Virus record (IMG/VR): IMGVR_UViG_2541047595_000012
Source: a virus
Taxonomy: Duplodnaviria; Heunggongvirae; Uroviricota; Caudoviricetes
DNA: 11,447 nucleotides
Direction: 5' to 3' (one strand)
Position numbers and translations under genes: made by a program. This document shows, one piece after another, positions 1 through 11,447 of the stretch. Under the pieces are notes generated by a model, which had not been told where the DNA came from, searched no databases, and was given only the letters and a program-made list of their open reading frames with translations. Numbering within the stretch: the stretch's first letter is position 1; every line of letters begins with the position of its first letter.

Positions 1-385
1 TGATATCGCCCTGGTTTATTTTGCGAAGAAGCGTCGATGTTCTGAAATTGCCAGCACCCACGTTGTAAACGAATGAGTAAAGAGCGCCGCGCATTGTTTC
101 CGGTATATCGACTTTGATGTACGGGTTAATTTGTCTGGCGACCGTGGCAAGGTCTTTATTCAGGAGGGCTTTGCATTCTGCTTTGGTATACGTTTTACCG
201 AGCATGATGTCTTTTCCTGTATGCCCGTGACATACAGTCCATACACCAACAATATCTTTGTATGGTATGTAGCTGACACCTTCCAGACCATCGTTACCAC
301 TTGGGCCAGTGATTAACACTGATGCTATAGCAATTGCTCCGCCACCAATAGCAGCAGCAACGGCTTTTCGTAATGATGGAGGCAT
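1..385 (-). CDS. rrrD: SAR endolysin (phage 21 R-type lysozyme), partial; N-terminus at 385, C-terminus beyond window start
   Basis: Hand translation of the minus strand from the ATG at 385-383 gives [59 protein letters not shown]... This has a Gly/Ala-rich signal-anchor-release segment followed by the T4-lysozyme-like catalytic spacing E-x8-D-x5-T. The start overlaps the holin stop in a TAATG arrangement. The six-frame track missed it because it runs off the window. Confidence 0.85.
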
Positions 386-600
386 TATTCACCTCTCGCA
401 GCCTTGCGCTTATCTTCTTTAATCTTGAAATAAAGGTTTGTCAGGTACGTCAGCAGGCCAAATACCAGGCTACCCAGCACACCTATTGCTGCCCACTGTG
501 AGGGCGTGACTTTATCGAGCAGCTGTAAAAACCAGTAACCGGCACTACCTGCTGAGGTGCCATAGGCGACACCCGTTGTTAACTTATCCATGGATTTCAT
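385..600 (-). CDS. essD: class II holin (S21-type pinholin) with dual-start motif
   Basis: 71-aa [31 protein letters not shown]...[14 protein letters not shown] with two transmembrane segments and a charged C-terminus. The N-terminal M-K-S-M arrangement matches the antiholin/holin dual start of phage 21 S. It sits immediately upstream of the endolysin on the same strand. Confidence 0.85.
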
Positions 601-762: not shown

Positions 763-1188
763 AAGCTGTGTGACGAAGTAACCACTCTTAACAGCATAAC
801 CAATTTTTTACGTACGTAAACTACTAAATGATATTTGTGAGAATGCCACCGAGTGTTCAAAACACCACCACAAATACATAAGAAAACTTCAACAAATAAT
901 CAGTTAATAATTTCCGATGTTATTTTTAGTTTGTTTAAATTAAGCTAAAGAATTATAGAGCACTTATAAATAAGTGCCATTAATATAAATTAGCTAATAG
1001 ATTTATTTTTGTTCAGACAAGAGCCATGAATAGGATTAGATAGAAAAGGTTCAGATAAAAATAGAGATCTACTTCACAAATTAAATGAGAAACTAAAACT
1101 TACATCTTGAAATAATCACATTGATTAGATGAATATTTATCGCGCAGTGACATCATTTTTTAATAATAGTTCAAAAAAAGGGCGTACA

Positions 1189-2271
1189 ATGAAAAAATTA
1201 ACAGTGGCAATTTCTGCTGTAGCTGCATCAGTACTGATGGCGATGTCTGCTCAGGCAGCTGAAATTTATAATAAAGACAGTAACAAGCTGGATCTATACG
1301 GGAAAGTTAATGCCAAGCACTACTTCTCCTCTAATGATGCAGATGATGGTGATACTACTTATGCCCGTCTTGGCTTCAAAGGTGAAACCCAAATCAACGA
1401 TCAACTGACTGGTTTCGGTCAGTGGGAATATGAATTCAAAGGCAACCGTGCTGAATCTCAAGGTTCTTCCAAAGACAAAACCCGTCTTGCATTTGCAGGC
1501 CTGAAATTTGGTGATTACGGCTCCATCGATTACGGCCGTAACTACGGTGTAGCATACGACATCGGTGCGTGGACTGACGTTCTGCCAGAATTCGGTGGTG
1601 ATACCTGGACCCAAACAGATGTGTTCATGACTGGTCGCACTACTGGTGTTGCAACTTATCGTAACAACGACTTCTTTGGTCTGGTCGATGGCCTGAACTT
1701 TGCTGCTCAGTATCAGGGTAAAAATGACCGCACTGACGTAACTGAAGCCAATGGTGATGGTTTCGGTTTCTCCACTACTTATGAGTATGAAGGATTCGGC
1801 GTGGGTGCAACCTATGCTAAATCAGATCGCACTGACGGTCAGGTCGCCTATGGTAAGAGCAAATTCAATGCCTCCGGCAAAAATGCGGAAGTATGGGCTG
1901 CAGGCCTGAAATATGATGCGAACAATATCTATCTGGCTACCACATATTCTGAAACTCAGAATATGACCGTTTTTGGTAATAACCATATTGCAAACAAAGC
2001 ACAAAACTTTGAAGCAGTAGCACAATATCAGTTTGACTTCGGTCTGCGCCCATCTGTTGCTTACCTTCAGTCAAAAGGTAAAGACCTTGGTGTTCATGGT
2101 GACCGAGACTTAGTCAAGTATGTCGATGTCGGTGCTACTTACTACTTTAATAAAAACATGTCTACTTTTGTTGATTACAAAATCAACTTAATTGACGATA
2201 GTAAGTTTACCAAAACAGCTGGTATTGATACCGACGACATCGTCGCTGTAGGTCTGGTTTATCAGTTCTAA
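1189..2271 (+). CDS. nmpC: outer-membrane general porin, OmpC/OmpF/PhoE family (prophage-encoded NmpC/Lc type)
   Basis: ORF 1129..2271; the likely true start is the ATG at 1189 ([23 protein letters not shown]|AEIYNKD...), giving a classic signal peptide with AQA cleavage site. Porin hallmarks are present: the internal PEFGGD loop-3 motif and a C-terminal ...VAVGLVYQF ending in Phe. Its position between Q and the lysis genes, on the opposite strand, matches the DLP12 nmpC / PA-2 Lc arrangement. Confidence 0.9.
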
Positions 2272-2459: not shown

Positions 2460-2843
2460 TCAATTAGAATTATTAGCAACGATATCCATATCTAACCGGA
2501 TATCTAATGCCATTAACATCCCTTCAATTATGCCCTCAGCCTTCTGTAACCTTTTCCCGATATAACCATCCGAGCAGCAATGCTTACTTGCCAGTGACAT
2601 GAATGTCATACCACATACATAATAATCTACTAATAAATCGTGTAAATCGCTGTTGTTCTTTTTCAGACGGGCCATGCACCCGCAAATGATCATCGCGTCA
2701 TCGTCACAACATTGCGGGCGAGATTTTACTTTTGAAGGAATTAATCCCTTAAAACCGGCGGCAATGGACGACCAGGTCACATCTTCATGATTATTAGCCG
2801 CCCACGCACCCCAACGCTCAAGAACCATCTGAATATCACGCAT
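2460..2843 (-). CDS. quuD: late-gene antiterminator Q (phage 82 / DLP12 QuuD type)
   Basis: The track ORF 2460..2858 starts on a TTG; the first ATG is at 2843, giving 127 aa [24 protein letters not shown]...[16 protein letters not shown]...[12 protein letters not shown]... The Cys clusters are consistent with a zinc-binding Q protein. It occupies the canonical position between the nin region and the lysis genes. Confidence 0.8.
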
Positions 2844-2928
2844 CAACTTACTCCACAAAAATCAGACCAGAACGCCAATTACAAGCAAAAATCAACAAAA
2901 CAGTATTAGTTGATTGTTATCTCTGACT

Positions 2929-3069
2929 TCATACTCCTGTTCCTGTCAGGGTTTTGGCGTAATTCTTCAGTATTCGGTAATCGGTCAAAACAGAACCGGG
3001 GAAACGATATAAGCGCAGACGCCCCCAGCGGTGGCGAAGAAGTTCTGCCATATTAAACTCAAACATCAT
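2929..3069 (-). CDS. ylcG: small conserved nin-region protein YlcG (46 aa), not in the ORF track
   Basis: Hand translation of the minus strand 3069->2929 gives [46 protein letters not shown]. Its ATG overlaps the rusA stop (ATGA), as expected for the small gene between rusA and Q in DLP12-type prophages. Confidence 0.55.
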
Positions 3070-3428
3070 TCATTCCCCATTTCGGTGATGGTCAGTTCCA
3101 GCCTCCCACCTTTGGTAACAGGCATCTTCACAACGCGGTAATCAACGACCTGAGCATCATCCAGCCAGAAACCTGCTTTAGTGAGTGCGTCAAAAGCGGC
3201 TTTTTGCAGATTATCCAGGTCACGGCGACGGCGATCCGGCATGTGGCACTCAATGCGGATTTTCACAGGCATAGCCAGGCCGATATCCAGCATTGCGTTT
3301 TTAATGATTCGGGCGACGTTATCGCGGTATGCCTGCCCCTCTGCGCTGACGTGCGTGCGCCCGCGATTATGGCGGTAATAGCGATTATTGCTCGGAGGCC
3401 AGGGTAATGTGATGCTGTAGGTATTCAC
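3066..3428 (-). CDS. rusA: Holliday-junction resolvase RusA (crossover junction endodeoxyribonuclease)
   Basis: 120-aa [41 protein letters not shown]...[31 protein letters not shown], recognised as RusA. The start codon is GTG at 3428-3426, overlapping the upstream ybcO-like stop. Confidence 0.9.
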
Positions 3429-3553
3429 GCCTTAATAACCCCCTCTTTTAGCCACATAACCTGTGTTCTCGCCATACCTTCCAGCGCGCATTCTTTTGCA
3501 TATGCAGCATCGACTTGCTTGGCATGCCCTTTACCGGCAATCTTCTGTATGCG
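3425..3553 (-). pseudogene. ybcO: 3' remnant (about 42 codons) of a ybcO-like (DUF1364) nin-region gene, interrupted upstream by an in-frame TAG
   Basis: The frame ending at the TGA at 3427-3425 translates to [42 protein letters not shown], which resembles the C-terminus of DLP12 YbcO as I recall it. An in-frame TAG at 3556-3554 and unrelated sequence upstream suggest truncation or a recombination junction. The 64-aa track ORF 3448..3642 is in a different frame. Confidence 0.4.
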
Positions 3554-3634
3554 CTAAACCTAGATAGAATCCACTCTGTGCACATTGAAGCCCGCTCTAT
3601 GCTTTCTTTCAGGTATTGAAGGGATTGAGATGGG

Positions 3635-3982
3635 CTAAGCATTATTGGCCTCCTGCATCAGGAGAAAGACAATCATGGCGGCGCGGAGAGGTCTGGTATC
3701 AAATATTGGGCTTACGCCTTTTGCATCCACACACCATTCAGTTAACTGGTCTAAGATAGAAATCCTGTATTTCTCAATAATCGGCCATGAAGCGCTCGGA
3801 TCATTGCAGTAGTCAGGCAAATGATTTAATGGCTCAAAAGTTGTATCAGCATTTCCGTAATACCATTTGTTGGTGTTATTCCCTGATGTTTCCGGTTTAC
3901 TTGCCCAAAGGCCTTTAAAAATTATGTCTCCTACCATTCTGTTAATTTCAAAATCACTTAACTGTGAATAATCCATTGTCAT
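3635..3982 (-). CDS. conserved phage nin-region protein of unknown function
   Basis: Track ORF 3635..4018; the likely start is the ATG at 3982 ([31 protein letters not shown]...), preceded by GAGGAA and overlapping the ninE stop in an ATGA arrangement. No recognisable catalytic motif. Confidence 0.55.
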
Positions 3983-4155
3983 TTCCTCGCACGATATCTT
4001 AGCCACCGGATATCCCACAGGTGGGCTGTGTAATTGAAGGTTTTTACGTCAGATTCTTTTGGGATTAGCTTGCGTTTATTTCTGGAGCATTTCGTTGGAA
4101 GGTATTTGCAGTTTTCGCAGATTATGTCGGTGATGCTTCGTCGCTGTCGTCTCAT
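3979..4155 (-). CDS. ninE: NinE protein
   Basis: The internal ATG at 4155 gives [58 protein letters not shown], closely matching lambda NinE from memory. The ATG overlaps the methyltransferase stop (ATGA). The longer track ORF (start 4245) would overlap the upstream gene. Confidence 0.8.
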
Positions 4156-4679
4156 GCAGCCCTCCTGACGCCCTGCCCGATCGCCATCAATGCCGCTTTG
4201 GATACGGTAGTAAACATCCGTCGAGGACTGATGAACGGTCGCCAAATCAGCAGCATGGAGCCTTTGCTGTTTCCATTCTTCTCCAGCCCTGTCGATGGTT
4301 CGATAAAATTAATCCGTCCATCAGTGATAATACGAACTTCGTCAACACTCTCCAGAGCCTTGCTGAACCATCCGACAGACATATCCTCTGGCACAAGCAT
4401 CACTACCGTCTGTCGCTGTTGTATACACTGCTCAGCGGCTTTTTCCACCCACGGCCTGATATTGCTGTACGGTGGGTTATTCCAGATTGCACCGTGGCTT
4501 ACCCACTCAGAATTGAGCGCGTCGTCGTCCTCAGTTAGCCAGTGAGCGCACAGAGCATTTTTGTCGCTCGCTGCCGAATCCAGCCAGAATCCAAACTCAA
4601 TATCCAGTGCATCAAAAAGCCAAAGCGGCGTTTGCCAGCAGTCCTTGTCGTGTGCTGGCGTATTTGATTTGATAGTCAT
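4152..4679 (-). CDS. phage DNA N6-adenine methyltransferase (Dam family, orphan MTase)
   Basis: The translation contains the NPPY motif-IV signature (...[18 protein letters not shown]...) typical of N6-adenine/N4-cytosine methyltransferases, in the lambdoid nin-region position. The ATG at 4679 ([25 protein letters not shown]...) overlaps the ninB stop (ATGA); the in-frame ATGs at 4709 and 4697 are alternatives. Confidence 0.75.
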
Positions 4680-5116
4680 GCAGCCCGATCTCCCCATCGC
4701 GCTTTCCATTCGAGAGCCAGTCGCGCTTCGTCTGACCACTTAACGCCACGCTCTGTACCGAATGCCTGTATAAGCTCTAATAGCTCCGCAAATTCGCTTA
4801 CACGCATCCTGCTGGTTGACTGGCCTATTACCACAAAGCCATTCCCGGCAAGGTTAGGAACAACATCCTGCTGCTTTAATGCTGCGGTAAACACACACTT
4901 CCAGCTTTCTGCATCCAGCCAGCGACCATGCCATTCAACCTGACGAGAGACGTCACCAAGGCAAGCCCAAAGCTTTCGATTCTGGTCTAAGCTGCGGTTG
5001 CGTTCCTGAATGGTTACTACGATTGGTTTGGTTGGGTCTGGAAGAATTTGCTGTACCGCGTGAATAGCGTTTTGCTGATGTGCTGGAGATCGAATTTCAA
5101 AGGTTAGTTTTTTCAT
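4676..5116 (-). CDS. ninB: recombination protein NinB (Orf family)
   Basis: The ATG at 5116, preceded by GAGGGAAG, gives MKKLTFEIRSPAHQQNAIHAVQQILPDPTKPIVVTIQERNRSLDQNRKLWACLGDV..., recognised as lambda NinB. Confidence 0.9.
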   Translation of the reverse strand: MKKLTFEIRSPAHQQNAIHAVQQILPDPTKPIVVTIQERNRSLDQNRKLWACLGDVSRQVEWHGRWLDAESWKCVFTAALKQQDVVPNLAGNGFVVIGQSTSRMRVSEFAELLELIQAFGTERGVKWSDEARLALEWKARWGDRAA

Positions 5117-5130
5117 GACTTCCCTCTCCC

Positions 5131-5164
5131 CCAAATAAAAAGGCCTGCAATTACCAGCAGGCCT
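5131..5164 (-). terminator. rho-independent terminator between ren and ninB (tR2-like)
   Basis: Stem AGGCCTGC / GCAGGCCT (8 bp) with an 8-nt loop; on the minus strand it is followed by TTTTATTTGG. The position matches lambda tR2 at the head of the nin region. Confidence 0.5.
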
Positions 5165-5189
5165 GTTATTAGCTCAGTGATGTAGATGG

Positions 5190-5480
5190 TCATCTTTTAA
5201 CTCCATATACCGCCAATACCCGTTTCATCGCGGCACTCTGGCGACACTCCTTAAAAATTAGGTTCGTGCTCATCTTTCCTTCCCGTTCTTCCCTGGTAGC
5301 AAACCGGTAATACACCGTTCGCCAGACCTTACCTTCGATAACCAGAAGACCTGCCCGTGCCATTTTAGCCGCGGCCTGATTTATGCTGGTTACTGTTGCG
5401 CCTGTTAGCGCGGCAACGTCCGGCGCACAGAAGCTATTATGCGTCCCCAGGTAATGAATAATTGCCTCTTTGCCCGTCAT
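5190..5480 (-). CDS. ren: Ren protein
   Basis: 96-aa ORF MTGKEAIIHYLGTHNSFCAPDVAALTGATVTSINQAAAKMARAGLLVIEGKVWRTVYY..., recognised as lambda Ren. Its start overlaps the P stop (ATGA). Confidence 0.85.
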   Translation of the reverse strand: MTGKEAIIHYLGTHNSFCAPDVAALTGATVTSINQAAAKMARAGLLVIEGKVWRTVYYRFATREEREGKMSTNLIFKECRQSAAMKRVLAVYGVKR

Positions 5481-6178
5481 ACACTTGCTCCTTTCAGTCC
5501 GAACTTAGCTTTGAGTTCTGCGATCTTCGCCAGAGCCTGTGCACGATTTAGAGGTCTACCGCCCATGACAGGAAGTTGTTTTACTGGTTCAGGGATCGCC
5601 TCACCACGGTTAATTCTCGCAGTCATATGGACAAGCTCATCTGCGGCCTTACGGCGTAATTCCGCATCAGTAAGCGCATTGGCCCGCATGTTCTGATACA
5701 GGTTGGTAACCAGCCAGTAGTGCGCGTTTGATTTCCACGGATAAGACTCCGCATCCGGATACAGGCCTCGCTTCCGGCAATACTCGTAAACCATATCAAC
5801 CAGCTCGCTGACGTTTGGCAGTCCGGCGATAACGGATGCTTCTTCCCGGCACCATGCAACAAACTGCCCGGGTGATGGCAGAAATGGTCGATTCTGCCGA
5901 CGGGCTACGCGCATTCCTGCGTTAACCTGTTCCATTGTGGTGATCCCGTTTTCCCGGAAAGCCAGAACCCACTGGCGGCGGATTTCGTTCAGTTCGTTCT
6001 GGTCACGGTTAGCCAGACTCGCCGGGAAAGTTGCCAGTAACTGGCTGAACACACCGTTGATGATCTGCGCTACCTGCTGTACCTGCGGCTTTTCGTCGTA
6101 CTGTTCCGGCATGTTGTTGGCGATCCTACGCATCTGCTCACGGTCAAAGTTAACCATCTGTGCGGCGATGTTTTTCAT
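5477..6178 (-). CDS. P: replication protein P (DnaB helicase loader)
   Basis: 233-aa ORF MKNIAAQMVNFDREQMRRIANNMPEQYDEKPQVQQVAQIINGVFSQLLATFPASLANRDQ..., recognised as lambda P. Its start overlaps the O stop (ATGA). Confidence 0.9.
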   Translation of the reverse strand: MKNIAAQMVNFDREQMRRIANNMPEQYDEKPQVQQVAQIINGVFSQLLATFPASLANRDQNELNEIRRQWVLAFRENGITTMEQVNAGMRVARRQNRPFLPSPGQFVAWCREEASVIAGLPNVSELVDMVYEYCRKRGLYPDAESYPWKSNAHYWLVTNLYQNMRANALTDAELRRKAADELVHMTARINRGEAIPEPVKQLPVMGGRPLNRAQALAKIAELKAKFGLKGASV

Positions 6179-7074
6179 AGATCCACCCCGTAAATCCAGT
6201 CTGTGTTTGTCAGGTCGAGTTTTGGTTTGCTGGCTGTCACGACTGCCTGTTGCTTGTTACGGTTGATTTCGAGCTGGGTCCACTTGTCGCGGAGTTTGGC
6301 CGGGCTAAGCACGTTACCGGACCAGAAGTTGTCCTGGCATGCCCAGCGGAACAGCACGCACATGTCGCGGTGGTTACGTCCGTCACGTTCACGCATCAGG
6401 CGGATATCGTTAGCCCACCCTGCAAAATTCGGTTTTCTGGCTGATGGCGCGATGGTCTTCACCATGTCAAACATCCACTCTGCGGCGGTCAGGTCTTCTG
6501 CTGTCCCCCACTTGCTGCCGCTCTGAATTGCAGCATCCGGTTTCACCACAGAAAGGTCGTTTTCTGGCTGGTCAGAGGATTCGCCAGAATTCTCTGACGA
6601 ATAATCTTTTCTTTTTTCTTTTGTAATAGTGTCTTTTGTGTCCCCCTGTTTTGAGGGATAGCAATCCCCCAATTTGAGGGATGTTTTATCCCTCGTTTTA
6701 GGGGATTTTCCCTCGTTTTGAGGGATGCACCATTCTGAGATGTTTTTGTTTGGTCCAAACATGCCGCCTTGCTGCTTGATAATATTCATTCTGACGAGTT
6801 CTAACTTGGCTTCATTGCACCGTTTGACGGGTAACTTTGTAATCTCGCTAAGTTGAGAATCGGTGATTCTGTCCATTGGTTTATTCCACCCATAGGTTTT
6901 ACGCAGAATGGCAAGCAGCACTTTAAACTGTCGCTTGGTCAGATCTGCGCCTGAATAAGCCTCAAGCAGCATATTTGATAGTCTGGCGTAACCATCATCG
7001 AGATCTGCCACATTACGCTCCTGTTTGGCAAAGTTACCTCTGCAGAAGTTGAGTATTTTTGCTGTATTTGTCAT
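6175..7074 (-). CDS. O: replication initiator protein O
   Basis: 299-aa ORF MTNTAKILNFCRGNFAKQERNVADLDDGYARLSNMLLEAYSGADLTKRQFKVLLAILRKTYGWNKP..., recognised as lambda O. The ori iterons are embedded in the middle of the gene, as in lambda. Confidence 0.9.
   Translation of the reverse strand: MTNTAKILNFCRGNFAKQERNVADLDDGYARLSNMLLEAYSGADLTKRQFKVLLAILRKTYGWNKPMDRITDSQLSEITKLPVKRCNEAKLELVRMNIIKQQGGMFGPNKNISEWCIPQNEGKSPKTRDKTSLKLGDCYPSKQGDTKDTITKEKRKDYSSENSGESSDQPENDLSVVKPDAAIQSGSKWGTAEDLTAAEWMFDMVKTIAPSARKPNFAGWANDIRLMRERDGRNHRDMCVLFRWACQDNFWSGNVLSPAKLRDKWTQLEINRNKQQAVVTASKPKLDLTNTDWIYGVDL
6595..6725. repeat. ori-lambda: four iterons (about 18-20 bp each, core TCCCTC/GAGGGA with A/T spacers) plus an adjacent AT-rich unwinding region, inside the O coding sequence
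   Basis: Direct repeats are visible at about 6641-6658, 6663-6681, 6686-6704 and 6705-6724 (for example TCCCCCTGTTTTGAGGGA and TTCCCTCGTTTTGAGGGA). They are preceded by the AT-rich stretch 6598-6640 (AATCTTTTCTTTTTTCTTTTGTAATAGTGTCTTTTGTG). Confidence 0.8.
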
Positions 7075-7083
7075 AATGACTCC

Positions 7084-7160
7084 TGTGGATTGATCCAGTA
7101 ATGACCTCAGAATTCCATCTGGATTTGTTCAGAACGCTCGGTTGCCGCCGGGCGTTTTTT
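7084..7160 (+). ncRNA. oop: OOP-like antisense RNA (candidate), ending at an intrinsic terminator, antisense to the 3' end of cII
   Basis: Plus-strand terminator CGCTCGG-TTGCCG-CCGGGCG followed by TTTTTT (7135-7160) lies inside the 3' end of cII on the opposite strand. A promoter-like TTGAGT...TCATAAT sits about 80 nt upstream inside the start of O. The 5' end is inferred, not observed. Confidence 0.5.
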
Positions 7161-7403
7161 ATTGGTGAGTCCATCAAGCGCATACTTAAAAGCCCTGCTA
7201 ATCGGACTGATGTCTGATGCCATTCCGAAAGCACACAAGACCGAAGCAATAAATCTCCAATCCGTTCTGCTTATCTTCGATTCATGACAGCCAATCATCT
7301 TTGCCAGACCGCGCTGGGTAATAGCTGACAGATTGATAAGTAAATCTGTTTCTGCGCGATCAACTTCACGCTGTGATAGTTTGCTGTAACTTGTTCTTTC
7401 CAT
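7107..7403 (-). CDS. cII: transcriptional activator CII (mosaic: non-lambda N-terminus, lambda-like C-terminus)
   Basis: 98-aa ORF whose C-terminus ...LTNKKRPAATERSEQIQMEF matches lambda CII from memory. The N-terminal two-thirds differ, consistent with an immunity-module boundary inside cII. Confidence 0.8.
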   Translation of the reverse strand: MERTSYSKLSQREVDRAETDLLINLSAITQRGLAKMIGCHESKISRTDWRFIASVLCAFGMASDISPISRAFKYALDGLTNKKRPAATERSEQIQMEF

Positions 7404-7420
7404 TTCTTAAGATTTCCAAT
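7381..7420 (+). promoter_or_regulatory. pRE-like CII-dependent promoter (TTGC-N6-TTGT direct repeat overlapping the cII start codon on the opposite strand)
   Basis: Plus strand TTGCTGTAACTTGT at 7381-7394 is the reverse complement of the first cII codons. This is the lambda pRE architecture, where CII binds TTGC-N6-TTGC flanking the -35. Confidence 0.4.
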
Positions 7421-7488
7421 AGTGAATAGTTAGTTGAAAGGTATGCGTGGAAACGCATATGGCCTTAGTTGGTCAGATATCTTGGAAC

Positions 7489-7534
7489 TCGCTTTTCAGC
7501 GACGTAGGACGAATGTCCGTTGTTACAAAGAGCG
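7489..7534 (-). promoter_or_regulatory. nutR-like site: boxA (CGCTCTTTGTAACAA) and boxB hairpin (TCGC-TGAAAA-GCGA) between cro and cII
   Basis: Read on the minus strand: a boxA-like GCTCTTT element at 7534-7520 and a small GAAAA-loop hairpin at 7502-7489. The same GCTGAAAAGC core occurs at the nutL candidate. A further hairpin at 7440-7457 (TATGCGT-GGAA-ACGCATA on the plus strand) is in the tR1 position. Confidence 0.45.
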
Positions 7535-7544
7535 GATCCGCTTA

Positions 7545-7760
7545 TTAAGCGGCTTTGTGTTCCGGCGGGAACACGTCATCAAGACTGACTTTTGCGCCTA
7601 ACTTGTTTAGGCACGCAACAAGAGCACGGCATGTTTTAAGGTCTGGGAAGCGACGACCAGATTCCCAATGTCCGATAGCTCCCTGTGTGCATCCAACTGC
7701 CTTAGCAAGTGTTGTTTGAGAGATATTCAGTGACTCTCGATATTTTCGTAGGTTGCTCAT
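7545..7760 (-). CDS. cro: Cro-like repressor (HTH, 71 aa)
   Basis: The internal ATG at 7760, preceded by GGAGGG, gives MSNLRKYRESLNISQTTLAKAVGCTQGAIGHWESGRRFPD... with a helix-turn-helix whose recognition helix (TQGAIGHW) mirrors that of the divergently encoded CI (TQGGIGHW). The longer track ORF (start 7853) would run through the operator region. Confidence 0.8.
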   Translation of the reverse strand: MSNLRKYRESLNISQTTLAKAVGCTQGAIGHWESGRRFPDLKTCRALVACLNKLGAKVSLDDVFPPEHKAA

Positions 7761-7870
7761 ATGCCCTCCATAGTAAACACGAATAAAAAATACAATATGT
7801 ACTTTAAGAATACAAGTAAAAATACACATTGTGCATGGATGGTTCCAGTACAAAGCGTAATAATAAGAAC
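7761..7870. promoter_or_regulatory. OR region with divergent pR (towards cro) and pRM (towards cI) and TACA/TGTA-armed operator repeats
   Basis: Minus-strand pR candidate: -35 TTGTAT (plus 7810-7815) and -10 TATTTT (plus 7787-7792), with the operator-like 19-mer AAAGTACATATTGTATTTT (plus 7787-7805) across the spacer and -10. AATACA[A/C] repeats occur at 7789, 7809 and 7821. pRM -10 candidate TAATAA at 7858-7863 lies immediately before the cI ATG, suggesting a leaderless cI mRNA. Confidence 0.55.
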
Positions 7871-8530
7871 ATGAAAATGAAATGGTATGAACTGGCTAGA
7901 TCCAGAATGAAAGAGCTCGGCATAACTCAAGAGAAGTTAGCCGAAGAGCTAGGTATGACGCAGGGTGGGATTGGACACTGGTTGCGCGGATCTCGTCATC
8001 CATCTCTTAGTGATATTGGAGTGGTGTTTAAATACCTTGGTATTGATAACATATCATTCAACCACGACGGGACATTTTCACCTGTTGGCGAATACTCATC
8101 GGCCCCAGTTAAAAAACAATATGAGTACCCTGTTTTTTCTCATGTTCAGGCTGGGATGTTCTCTCCAGAACTCAGAACCTTTACCAAAGGCGATGCGGAG
8201 AGATTGGTAAGCACAACCAAAAAAGCCAGTGACTCTGCATTCTGGCTTGAGGTTGAAGGTAACTCAATGACCGCACCAACAGGTTCCAAGCCCAGCTTTC
8301 CTGACGGGATGTTAATTCTGGTTGACCCTGAGCAGGCTGTTGAGCCAGGCGATTTCTGTATAGCCAGACTTGGTGGTGATGAGTTTACCTTCAAGAAACT
8401 GATCAGGGATAGCGGTCAGGTGTTTCTACAGCCACTAAACCCACAATACCCAATGATCCCATGCAATGAGAGTTGTTCCGTTGTGGGGAAAGTTATCGCT
8501 AGTCAGTGGCCTGAAGAGACGTTTGGGTGA
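7871..8530 (+). CDS. cI: CI prophage repressor (HTH N-terminal domain plus LexA/S24-type autocleavage C-terminal domain)
   Basis: The C-terminal part (...[25 protein letters not shown]...[29 protein letters not shown]...[32 protein letters not shown]) matches the lambda CI C-terminal domain from memory, including the Ser/Lys dyad context. The N-terminal HTH domain is non-lambda. The start is uncertain: ATGs at 7835, 7871 and 7877 are all in frame, with no Shine-Dalgarno, consistent with a leaderless message; 7871 is chosen. Confidence 0.8.
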
Positions 8531-8629
8531 TGTGACTGCATGTAATTTATCAAAAGCGCACATACCCTATGCTAAACAACTTACTGATTAATTTACTGAA
8601 AATCATTTATTAAAAAATAAGGATTGCCA

Positions 8630-9481
8630 ATGAATTTTTCGGAAGAAAAAAATAAAGATTTCCCCAAAAAAGTACAAACTTCGCTATTTGAAGTAGATTG
8701 TAATGACGGATGCTCATTTGTAGATGTCTTGAAGACATGCGAAAATTTCAAACAAAACTATGACTTTGAGTACTCTAACGACACTCGGGCAAGGATAAAA
8801 AGTCTAATAGTTAACGATGACCAAATCTTTGCTGGGATAACACTCTATGAGCCCAAAGCTTTGGTCCCGGTAACTCCAAAAGATGGAGACCATAACGATT
8901 TGCAGGATGTAGATAATTATGATAAATGCCATATATTCTTGCTTGCAACAGAAAGCAATATTCTAACAATTTTTCAACTATCAGGAACTCATCCTTTATC
9001 TAAGTTAAAAAAAATATTTAGCCTCATGAATATCAATGTGAATATTTCTGAGAAACTCAACAAAGATGCACTTGGCAAGATAATAAAAGATGGAATACGC
9101 TCCATCAGCCTAAGTATTGAAACAACAAAAGAAGATCTAGAAGAGGCAAAAGCAACATCATTAGGTATCACTGGAAAAGCTAAAGAAGCTTTGTCAAGAT
9201 TATTTGAGAAAGAGCAAGATGATGACAACTCTTTCTATGGGCTTCTGACTCTTGACAAGAGACATAACCCAAAACTCTTAAATATTGCGAACAAAAATCC
9301 AAGCCTGATCATTGATGAATTATCGGAAGAGTTCTTCATCACAACATCAAAAGGCCAAGCGATCAAAAGCTCTGAAATCAAAACAAAAAAAGATTATTAC
9401 ACAAGAAAGTATGGCTCTACCACCATAAAAGCGGAACACGCTAAGGAAATTCTTGAGCACTTCAAGGATTTCATACTATAA
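8630..9481 (+). CDS. hypothetical soluble protein (283 aa), first gene of an AT-rich cassette in the rexA position; not recognisable as lambda RexA
   Basis: The ATG at 8630 is preceded by AAGGA (the track ORF begins on a TTG at 8624). The protein is Lys/Asp/Glu-rich with no transmembrane segment, no Walker motif and no obvious nuclease or protease signature. Codon usage and base composition are visibly AT-rich compared with the flanking phage genes. Confidence 0.7.
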   Translation: MNFSEEKNKDFPKKVQTSLFEVDCNDGCSFVDVLKTCENFKQNYDFEYSNDTRARIKSLIVNDDQIFAGITLYEPKALVPVTPKDGDHNDLQDVDNYDKCHIFLLATESNILTIFQLSGTHPLSKLKKIFSLMNINVNISEKLNKDALGKIIKDGIRSISLSIETTKEDLEEAKATSLGITGKAKEALSRLFEKEQDDDNSFYGLLTLDKRHNPKLLNIANKNPSLIIDELSEEFFITTSKGQAIKSSEIKTKKDYYTRKYGSTTIKAEHAKEILEHFKDFIL

Positions 9482-9518
9482 TGGAGGGTCGTACGTATAA
9501 CCAAAGGGGGAGGTGTGA

Positions 9519-10010
9519 ATGAGAGGTAAAGATTGGAGTTATATTTTTTCCATAATCTTTTTTATCTGCCTTTCTCTTGTATTAACTTATTATTTACATG
9601 ATAAGGTTAGATATAACAAAGAGTTGCTTGGACTTGTGGCAAATATATTTTCAATATTAACAGGGTTTCTGTTACTTGTTATAACCACAAGTGGAGACGT
9701 AGCATCGTTTACAGAAGGTAAATCAAGATCAGAAAAGTATGCAACTAAGAGGAAATTCGAAATTCGGTTTTCTCGTTACATGATGCTTTTTTACCTCTAT
9801 CTTACAGTCTTGTGCTTAATATTCTTCTACTACATGCTGCTGCCACCAGGAGACACCAGTAAAATCTTAGCAAGCAAGCCGCCTGTGACCAACCTGAGTC
9901 TGGCACTTGAGTTTATTATATGCTGGCTAAGCATAATTTCATTTGGATGCTCTTTTTTCATACCAATAAAGCTGAAACAGATTTATAACGAAAAACTCAA
10001 GCAACAATAA
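9519..10010 (+). CDS. hypothetical integral membrane protein (163 aa, about four transmembrane helices), second gene of the cassette in the rexB position
   Basis: The ATG at 9519 is preceded by a strong GGGGGAGG Shine-Dalgarno. Four hydrophobic stretches are visible (about aa 8-26, 36-57, 87-108 and 126-150). The size and topology resemble RexB-type small membrane effectors, but the sequence is not recognisably RexB. Confidence 0.75.
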   Translation: MRGKDWSYIFSIIFFICLSLVLTYYLHDKVRYNKELLGLVANIFSILTGFLLLVITTSGDVASFTEGKSRSEKYATKRKFEIRFSRYMMLFYLYLTVLCLIFFYYMLLPPGDTSKILASKPPVTNLSLALEFIICWLSIISFGCSFFIPIKLKQIYNEKLKQQ

Positions 10011-10036
10011 CCCGGCCTCAGCGCCGGGTTTTCTTT
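10009..10036 (+). terminator. rho-independent terminator (AACCCGGC-CTCAGC-GCCGGGTT followed by TTCTTTG); timm-like end of the cI-cassette transcript
   Basis: Perfect 8-bp GC-rich stem directly after the stop of the membrane-protein gene, followed by a T-rich tract. Confidence 0.7.
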
Positions 10037-10210
10037 GCCTCACGATCGCCCCACCTAAAAACACATAACCAATTGTATTTATTGAAAAATAAATAGATAC
10101 AACCCACTAAACCACGCAATTCTGATCTCTCCTTACATCGCCGAGGCAATACATCCACGCTAAAAAACAACACTATTAAATACAAAGCGTTATAAAAAAC
10201 CACGCCAACT

Positions 10211-10260
10211 TACAACAAATTGTATTGATCTTGTAAAGTACATATCGTACTATTTAACCG
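10211..10260 (+). promoter_or_regulatory. OL/pL-like region: -35 TTGATC (10225-10230), -10 TACTAT (10249-10254), overlapping operator-like motifs
   Basis: The 15-mer AAAGTACATATCGTA (10235-10249) is nearly identical to the motif in the pR spacer (AAAGTACATATTGTA). TACAACAAATTGTA (10211-10224) is a TACA-N6-TGTA inverted repeat. Orientation and distance to nutL and N fit a pL promoter. Confidence 0.5.
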
Positions 10261-10298
10261 TCAGCAGGACGCTGGAAGCCAAATGGAACAGACTGGCA

Positions 10299-10344
10299 GG
10301 CTCTTTAAACAACGTCGACTCTCGACTACGTGGCTGAAAAGCCA
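10299..10344 (+). promoter_or_regulatory. nutL-like site: boxA (GGCTCTTTAAACAA) and boxB hairpin (TGGC-TGAAAA-GCCA)
   Basis: The boxA-like element at 10299-10312 resembles the E. coli and lambda boxA (GCTCTTTAACAA). A GAAAA-loop hairpin follows at 10331-10344. It lies between the pL candidate and N. Confidence 0.5.
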
Positions 10345-10442: not shown

Positions 10443-10715
10443 ATGTCCAGAAAAACAGAATTTAAAGGCACCGCAGCTTCTCGCCGTAGAGCTCGTCGCG
10501 CAAATCTGCAAAGTCAGGAGGCGATCAGCTCCGACAAGCTACACAGGCCAACCCCTTCACGAGTGGTCTTGCAATGCAAGCGCAAACCAGCAATGAGAGC
10601 AGAAGTGATAACTCTGACAACGTTGACCAGAAAATATGAAGGTTCAACTTGTCTTCCGAACGTAGCTCTTTACGCGGCAGGCTACCGGAAATCAAAACAA
10701 CTGACGGCGAGATGA
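10443..10715 (+). CDS. N: N-type antitermination protein (P22-like N with arginine-rich RNA-binding motif)
   Basis: The ATG at 10443 is preceded by GGGAGGAA, giving MSRKTEFKGTAASRRRARRANLQSQEA... with an arginine-rich motif near the N-terminus. The C-terminus ...VALYAAGYRKSKQLTAR resembles the P22 gene 24 (N) product as I recall it. The track ORF start at 10371 is upstream of the Shine-Dalgarno and is unlikely. Confidence 0.7.
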   Translation: MSRKTEFKGTAASRRRARRANLQSQEAISSDKLHRPTPSRVVLQCKRKPAMRAEVITLTTLTRKYEGSTCLPNVALYAAGYRKSKQLTAR

Positions 10716-10731
10716 TAAATTCATTTGCTAA

Positions 10732-11313
10732 TTACTTGTTTTTGCCATGCTTATCCTGAGCGATAAGTTCATCCATAAGGCTGTCTGCCTTCCCGGCAAA
10801 CCGAATGTAGCACTCATGTCTATAGCTTTCAGGAATAACAAAACGGTCGGTATCAGGATATCCAACAGCAGGAGGCCTTCGAACGAGGAGTCCTTTTTTG
10901 AGCAATGAAATTGATTCATGAACTCCCTTTTCCGTTTGTAGCTGGTTATTAGCGGCTACAGCGAATGCCAAATACGCTCTTTCTCCAAGAGTTAACGAAT
11001 CAAACAAATCTTGCACATATTTTTCTTCTTTAGATTTGCGCTTCTGAGCAGCGGATACCTCAATTCTTTCAGTCACAGCGTGATAAGCGGAATTAACAAC
11101 GCCGTTAAGCACATAGCTAACGCAAAACAACAGGATGTAATACATCCAGTAATGAGGAAGGATTTCTGGATTATGCAGGTTTATCCATTCTTTTACGCTT
11201 ACCGGCATAACAATAATCAATATGATCAGGATGATTAGCATATGAATCAACTGTTTAAGTGTCATTCCTTGCAGGAAAAAATGCATTAGTTCCTGCCACC
11301 ATGAGTTGTTCAT
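10732..11313 (-). CDS. sieB: superinfection exclusion protein B (SieB-like), membrane-anchored
   Basis: 193-aa ORF with an N-terminal hydrophobic segment (LIHMLIILIILIIVMPV... and YWMYYILLFCVSYVL), adjacent to N. Its size and location match lambda/P22 SieB; recognition is from memory and only moderately secure. Confidence 0.6.
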   Translation of the reverse strand: MNNSWWQELMHFFLQGMTLKQLIHMLIILIILIIVMPVSVKEWINLHNPEILPHYWMYYILLFCVSYVLNGVVNSAYHAVTERIEVSAAQKRKSKEEKYVQDLFDSLTLGERAYLAFAVAANNQLQTEKGVHESISLLKKGLLVRRPPAVGYPDTDRFVIPESYRHECYIRFAGKADSLMDELIAQDKHGKNK

Positions 11314-11357
11314 CGGCGTTTCTCTTTTGCTCTCTGTAGGGGTGAATAGAGTTTATC

Positions 11358-11447
11358 TGAACCGCCCCGGGAATCCTGGAGACTAAACTTCCTGAGAAAG
11401 AGGTAAACAGGATGACTAAAAATACTCGTTTTTCCCCCGAAGTCCGT
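11358..11447 (+). mobile_element. left end of an IS3-family insertion sequence (IS629/IS1203-like), with terminal inverted repeat and the start of orfA (ATG at 11412)
   Basis: TGAACCGCCCCGGGAATCCTGG... begins at 11358, the typical TGA-initiated IS3-family end. orfA begins MTKNTRFSPEVR (11412..11447, partial), which matches the N-terminus of IS629-type OrfA as I recall it. The element continues beyond the window. Confidence 0.7.

Follow-up and report, generated by a model that had tools for sequence, protein, structure and literature searches.

The mosaicism of the lambdoid phages reaches into the individual domains of their repressors: in phage 933W an HK022-type N-terminal domain is joined to an H-19B-type C-terminal domain (PMC3202840, after Fattah et al. 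2000), and in the CI repressor of VT2-Sakai (Sp5) homology to lambda CI is high at the C-terminus and low at the N-terminus, an observation that PMC10742460 credits to Fattah et al. (2000). The operators of the Sakai-type phages, OR1-3 in the right and OL1-3 in the left operator region (OR and OL), have also been listed (PMC4587872). This mosaic switch, its operators and its pattern of N- and C-terminal homology are therefore already known from the literature and the databases. Here we analyse the corresponding immunity module, centred on cro and cI (positions 7545-8530), of a caudovirus (IMG/VR record IMGVR_UViG_2541047595_000012), using the whole 11,447-nucleotide stretch, hereafter the window. 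From sequence we predict, with high confidence, that a lambdoid coliphage uses this module, made mosaic by recombination, as its lysis/lysogeny (immunity) switch, and that its immunity is of the VT2-Sakai type; operator occupancy, repressor cleavage and specificity are predicted features of that switch. The coordinates of all features are collected in Table 1.

The mosaic structure is most evident in cI. The first 83 residues of its product include an HTH_3 helix-turn-helix domain (Pfam, residues 11-58, 1.9e-10), but their identity to lambda CI is 29.8% and extends over 47 residues only, and the DNA that encodes them (7871-8119) had no blastn match in lambda, HK97, P22 or HK022. From Y84 onward, 136 of 137 residues are identical to lambda CI 102-237, a W-to-L substitution being the sole change, and the DNA is 94.9% identical. 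This part contains a Peptidase_S24 domain (Pfam, residues 87-209, 1.1e-28), and the product matches the lambda repressor structure 3bdn in the PDB (E 2.6e-96). Sliding nucleotide identity to lambda is about 50% before the 8119/8120 boundary and about 95% after it, the step taking only a few bases, and 20 of the 21 nucleotide differences from lambda beyond that point are synonymous, with one non-synonymous. The original prediction had read this gene as a lambda-like C-terminal domain fused to a foreign DNA-binding domain, with a recombination junction inside cI, and alignment agrees with it throughout: comparison with lambda returned neither a lambda-type CI N-terminal domain, nor a lambda-type Cro, nor a low C-terminal identity.

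The cleavage-site and catalytic residues are retained, as Ala94-Gly95, Ser132 and Lys175 align with lambda A111-G112, S149 and K192, and the protein has the features of the LexA/lambda-CI family of S24 peptidases, namely a helix-turn-helix domain, a Ser/Lys dyad and an Ala-Gly site in the linker. With a C-terminal fragment this close to that of lambda, RecA-stimulated autocleavage on SOS induction would be expected, and the same identity suggests that dimerisation, cooperative contacts and looping may also be retained.

The divergently encoded Cro is an HTH_3 protein as well (Pfam 4.2e-12), and gave no match at E<0.01 against lambda, HK97, P22 or HK022. Its match in the PDB is 28tn, a 'lambda repressor-like protein' (E 4.5e-17), and the N-terminal domain of P22 C2 reaches only E ~0.01 against it. 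Much closer is the N-terminal domain of the CI encoded beside it (35% identity over 62 residues, E 9e-13), and the recognition helices of the two proteins, TQGAIGHW in Cro and TQGGIGHW in CI, are the same at seven of eight positions. Both the non-lambda character of Cro and this near-identity had been claimed beforehand, and both hold. The way in which the recognition helices of Cro proteins correlate with operator half-sites has been described as an 'evolutionary code' (PMC6649833). The Cro described here obeys that code, as positions H1 and H3 of its helix 3 are Gln and Ala and the operators carry A at both +2 and +5. A near-identical recognition helix in CI and Cro, together with a common set of six operators, is as expected for two competitors.

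[quoted passage not shown] Three of them (OR1, OR2 and OL1) are identical to the annotated sites and the other three (OR3, OL2 and OL3) differ by one or two bases. All six fit the pattern, OR1 on both strands. In the window the pattern matches nine times, compared with 0.63 expected, none of 200 shuffles reached nine, and seven of the nine matches fall in OR or OL. A repeat search of the OR region returned no operators. The half-site consensus is (A/T)-A-R-T-A-C-A-A, with A5 and C6 present in 12 of 12 half-sites and A2 in 11. The lambda operator half-site is TATCACCG. The two have A2, A5 and C6 in common and differ at positions 4, 7 and 8 (T4, A7 and A8 here; C4, C7 and G8 in lambda), of which position 4 is invariant in the lambda set, and no lambda-type operator was found in OR or OL within three mismatches. 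An additional match to the pattern, AATACAATTGGT (10068-10079, minus strand), lies inside a lambda-like stretch of 130 bp, about 100 bp from OL3; it could be a chance occurrence, given 0.63 expected per window, or a fourth site on the OL side.

The arrangement of these elements, in which divergent cI and cro flank three operators and a second triplet lies at the PL promoter, is the layout of a lambdoid bistable switch. Candidates for PL and for the PR and PRM promoters overlap the operators in the expected lambda-like places, and we assign them provisionally, from position and weak consensus matches. In the database annotations (GenBank and the Prokaryotic Genome Annotation Pipeline), cI starts at ATG 7835, which gives a product of 231 residues. 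However, this codon is inside OR2, and that start would place OR3 within the coding sequence. In the Salmonella phage SPN9CC, the cI homologue is preceded by an in-frame stop, and its product starts with MKMNWYD at the position that corresponds to 7871, with a TATAAT box 6 nucleotides before the ATG. In the window, AATAAT at 7859-7864 resembles a -10 element and would make the A of ATG 7871 the first transcribed nucleotide; counted from there, OR2 is centred at -43 and OR3 at -17, compared with -42 and -19 in lambda. A CI of 219 residues made from a leaderless PRM mRNA, as in lambda, is therefore more likely, a view that follows from position and is supported by the start of the SPN9CC homologue.

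To judge from its CI DNA-binding domain, Cro and operators, the module belongs to the VT2-Sakai immunity type. Within this type, the CI N-terminal domain is 98.8-100% and the C-terminal domain 99-100% identical, N is 100% alike, and the DNA over cII-cro-cI is 97-100% identical (97.4-97.6% when tested against VT2-Sakai and the Stx1-converting phage). In a phage collection, the CI N-terminal domain was also found in Stx2 II, 1717 and YYZ-2008, among others; identity is complete (100%) for Nil2, for the PA-series phages and for the Stx1-converting phage, and amounts to 98.8% for VT2-Sakai and 52% for SPN9CC. The module is 97-99% identical in many Stx phages, and positions 7400-8600 are 100% identical to the Escherichia phages 2G7b and PhiR11_1. 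The VT2-Sakai relatives differ in the genes between cI and OL, and in the replication module, which consists of lambda O and P in the window but of an HK022-like O and a longer P in AP005153.

Compared with the lambda switch itself, the C-terminal 136 residues of CI (99.3%) with their Ala-Gly site and Ser/Lys dyad, the two sets of three 17-bp operators, the divergence of cI and cro and the placement of OR2 and OR3 relative to the cI start are all alike. In contrast, the CI N-terminal domain (about 30%), an all-helical HTH_3 Cro outside the lambda Cro fold family, the half-site (AARTACAA against TATCACCG), the wider operator spacing and the replacement of rexAB are all different. Assignment to lambda immunity was rejected on the N-terminal identity, the lack of homology to lambda Cro and the lack of TATCACCG-type operators in OR and OL. 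Likewise, 434 or P22 immunity was rejected, since P22 C2 is 36.7% identical to CI overall and the PDB match lists contain no 434 repressor or Cro chain. The 933W repressor, given as the textbook example in PMC3202840, is comparable as an intragenic domain mosaic in a lambdoid cI, but it is built of other N- and C-terminal modules, and its C-terminal domain is highly divergent and non-cooperative (PMC3202840), whereas the one described here is of lambda type. SPN9CC carries a full-length relative of cI with the same start, MKMxWY, a CI and a Cro whose helices resemble each other (TKGAVSHW and TRGAVCHY) and a ATACAAATTGTAT palindrome upstream of cI. However, its N-terminal domain is 52% and its C-terminal domain 80% identical to those in the window; it represents a diverged lineage rather than a recent exchange with lambda.

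The distribution of the module was examined in 5426 complete E. coli genomes. Of these, 776, about one in seven, carry the non-lambda part (cro, OR and cI codons 1-83), and the same 776 carry the full mosaic cI, the non-lambda part always being joined to a lambda-type C-terminal domain. About 435 further genomes gave matches to the C-terminal part only and, among the matches listed, all begin at query base 250, which is window position 8120. In all, 1211 genomes contain the lambda-type C-terminal part of cI, at 1435 places; a single genome has at most three, and more than 200 genomes have two or three. In L009, a wild prophage of lambda immunity in E. coli CH4793, the N-terminal domain of cI is 99.0% identical to lambda at the nucleotide level, whereas the C-terminal domain is closer to the window (97.3%) than to lambda (95.9%). 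Hence, alleles of the C-terminal domain pass from one immunity type to another at the 8120 breakpoint.

We propose that the HTH_3 domain of CI would bind six 17-bp pseudo-palindromic operators, three in OR and three in OL, and that its lambda-type C-terminal domain would let it dimerise, make cooperative and looping contacts and, when stimulated by RecA, cleave itself at Ala94-Gly95 by means of Ser132 and Lys175. Cro, as a paralogous HTH_3 protein of 71 residues, would compete with CI for the same operators. A specificity cassette (cro, OR and cI codons 1-83), with the matching OL, PL, nutL and N, has most probably become linked through homologous recombination to an allele of the C-terminal domain that circulates among phages of lambda and Sakai immunity. 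At the conserved 3' end of cII, a further crossover joins HK97-type cII and nutR to the lambda-type O-P replication module.

An origin of cI by vertical descent, with an N-terminal domain that diverged rapidly under selection and a C-terminal domain that was conserved, would need no recombination at all. Both N-terminal domains are indeed of the HTH_3 family with weak residual similarity (29.8% over 47 residues), and the C-terminal domain is under strong purifying selection, as the ratio of 20 synonymous to one non-synonymous change indicates. However, synonymous sites change just as abruptly, from unalignable to 95% identical at a single position; on this step the explanation was rejected. 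Furthermore, the C-terminal matches in other genomes start at exactly the same base (among the matches listed), the relationships of the C-terminal alleles cut across N-terminal types, and SPN9CC displays the pattern that vertical descent would be expected to leave, with 52% and 80% identity in the two domains. We consider vertical descent highly improbable. It is just as hard to believe that the switch has stopped working and that the region is merely what decay has left in a cryptic prophage. Most of the copies found do sit in bacterial chromosomes, but the open reading frames, operators and nut sites are all intact, and an identical module is carried by two phages that have been isolated, 2G7b and PhiR11_1, of which PhiR11_1 is on record as having been propagated on K-12.

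A working, recombinant switch could still differ from our model in its details, and some observations weigh against that model as it stands. The candidate PR, PRM and PL promoters are weak (8 of 12 consensus positions) and the standard promoter scan listed none of them. Operator spacings of 32 and 26 bp at OR and 25 and 33 bp at OL are wider than the 24 and 23 bp or so of lambda, so lambda-style pairwise cooperativity cannot be assumed and the pairing scheme may differ. The half-site differences at positions 4, 7 and 8 and the lack of lambda-type operators make a specificity different from that of lambda, and hence heteroimmunity, the natural reading of these data. This reading is only partly supported, because, according to PMC10742460, Fattah et al. 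(2000) reported that VT2-Sakai and lambda are cross-immune. PMC10742460 also describes weak binding of lambda CI in vitro, with shifts of all six VT2-Sakai operators at apparent dissociation constants of 3.7-6.4 uM, compared with 0.21-3.07 uM for the sites of lambda itself. Perhaps, then, the module is cross-immune with lambda through mutual operator recognition, possibly aided by mixed oligomers or cooperative contacts of the shared C-terminal domain. A2, A5 and C6 are common to both sets of half-sites, Gln, Gly and Gly in helix 3 are common to both CI proteins, and C-terminal domains with 136 of 137 residues identical make mixed dimers plausible. Yet the two half-sites differ at three positions, including one that is invariant in lambda, no lambda-type operator was found within three mismatches, and the electrophoretic mobility shift affinities are 10-25 times weaker than those of lambda OR1 and OL1 in the same assay, for which no non-operator comparison is described in that part of PMC10742460. 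In addition, the many E. coli genomes with two or three cI genes sharing a C-terminal domain (1435 places in 1211 genomes) suggest that such prophages coexist. On balance we regard cross-immunity as unlikely, although far less so than descent without recombination, and favour a heteroimmune switch. A related idea, that co-resident prophages sharing the C-terminal allele form mixed CI dimers or hetero-oligomers that couple their switches, seems to us slightly more doubtful still. If true, such oligomers would lead to partial cross-immunity, co-induction or dominant-negative destabilisation, and could explain why Fattah et al. (2000) are said to have found cross-immunity with lambda, a puzzling result.

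The neighbouring cII gene has a junction of its own. Its product (Pfam Phage_CII, 2.6e-34) is 83-84% identical to HK022 and HK97 CII and 43% identical to lambda CII. In a four-way DNA alignment, the sequence is HK97-like from nutR to about codon 75 and lambda-like from about 7169-7180, where HK97 and HK022 diverge from it; the 98.2% lambda-like block ends at 7169, in cII. The boundary presumably lies close to the end of the antisense oop RNA gene, and no oop or nut family was detected when the entire window was scanned against Rfam. A junction within cII was thus foreseen correctly, while the N-terminus, thought to be novel, proved to be of HK97/HK022 type. The antiterminator N had been taken for P22-like, and this view has to be abandoned, as the protein agrees with HK97 N at 54 of 90 residues (the arginine-rich motif included) and with P22 gp24 at 38 of 90. 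Its C-terminal 25 residues are 100% identical to those of HK97 N, and by blastn the last 66 nucleotides of the gene are HK97/P22-like. Both boxB elements, in nutL and nutR, have a 5-bp stem and a true GAAA tetraloop, and their second stem pair is swapped between G-C and C-G, a compensating change. At the aligned boxB position the loop is of five nucleotides in both relatives, GACAA in HK97 and GAAAA in lambda.

The window as a whole is the early region of a lambdoid coliphage, reversed relative to the lambda map; the gene order was taken from open reading frames, Pfam matches and the PhiR11_1 annotation. Blastn against lambda gave three matching blocks only, and the remainder is HK97-like, P22-like or unmatched. 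The 'lambda-like backbone' of the original prediction is consequently right for ninB-ren-P-O, the 3' part of cI and the 130 bp past the rex slot, and the window in its entirety is a patchwork of lambda-, HK97- and P22-like segments. The 130-bp block contains a terminator-like hairpin at 10009-10030. The two proteins encoded in the rex slot had no PADLOC or Pfam match, and neither hhalign nor BLASTP related them to RexA or RexB; one, of 285 residues, matched a PHROGs family of unknown function, and the other had no PHROGs match. In L009 (positions 2039-2896), genes with a PIN domain and a NYN domain replace rexAB between cI and N, indicating that what the slot carries changes without regard to immunity type.

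Towards the ends of the window, sieB is of P22 type, with 83% amino acid identity to P22 sieB and 85% nucleotide identity across the 3' end of N and sieB (10652-11360). In PADLOC, the '2TM-TIR' model also matches it marginally (E 0.008), probably on account of its membrane segments. The porin gene, which is placed between those for Q and the holin but on the other strand, encodes an OmpC/OmpD-like protein of 380 residues (OmpD in the PhiR11_1 annotation); situated in the late-promoter region, it resembles a 'moron' of the lysogenic-conversion kind.

Table 1. Features of the 11,447-nucleotide window, with positions counted from its first letter.
Feature	Position	Strand	Sequence	Remarks
Holin	385-600	-		
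Porin	1129-2271	+		
Q	2460-2858	-		
nin genes	2929-5134	-		
Lambda-like block	4676-7169			98.2%; ninB, ren, P, O and last 21 cII codons (blastn)
ren, P, O	5190-7074	-		
cII	7107-7403	-		98 residues; 1-78 HK97/HK022-type, last 20 lambda-identical
nutR boxB	7489-7502	-	UCGCU-GAAA-AGCGA	
boxA-like	7520-7534	-		
cro	7545-7760	-		71 residues, all-helical HTH_3; recognition helix TQGAIGHW; GGAGG ribosome-binding site upstream
OR1	7788-7804		AAATACAATATGTACTT	Overlaps candidate PR -10; identical to AP005153 'putative operator'
Candidate PR	7820 to 7792	-	TTTACT-17-TATTGT	Relaxed scan
OR2	7820-7836		AAATACACATTGTGCAT	Centre -43 from proposed PRM start; identical in AP005153
Candidate PRM	7836-7864		TGGATG-17-AATAAT	Relaxed scan
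OR3	7846-7862		CAGTACAAAGCGTAATA	Overlaps candidate PRM -10/spacer; one base differs from AP005153 site
cI	7871-8530	+		219 residues from MKMKWYE; Pfam HTH_3 and Peptidase_S24
cI N-terminal part	7871-8119	+		Non-lambda DNA-binding domain and linker, residues 1-83; recognition helix TQGGIGHW
cI C-terminal part	8120-8530	+		Lambda-type cleavage-site region and oligomerisation/autocleavage domain, residues 84-219
Lambda-like block	8120-8531			94.9% (nucleotide); cI codons 84-219 (blastn)
Rex slot	8624-10010	+		Two genes between cI and OL
Lambda-like block	10002-10131			130 bp, 91.5%; downstream of rexB/rex slot (blastn)
OL/PL/nutL	~10178-10344			
OL3	10178-10194		AAATACAAAGCGTTATA	
OL2	10211-10227		CAATACAATTTGTTGTA	Minus-strand reading; overlaps candidate PL -35
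Candidate PL	10225-10253		TTGATC-17-TACTAT	Relaxed scan
OL1	10236-10252		AAGTACATATCGTACTA	Overlaps candidate PL -10; identical to AP005153 annotated operator
boxA-like	10300-10312	+		
nutL boxB	10331-10344	+	UGGCU-GAAA-AGCCA	
N antiterminator	10443-10715	+		90 residues, HK97-type with 29-residue internal deletion; Pfam N_peptide 3.4e-32
sieB	10732-11313	-		

In summary, this module illustrates cleanly how phage repressors recombine at the level of domains, with a breakpoint, at position 8120, that recurs in hundreds of genomes. Furthermore, the switch controls the induction of many Shiga-toxin prophages, VT2-Sakai among them, and its specificity and cleavage behaviour therefore bear on toxin release.
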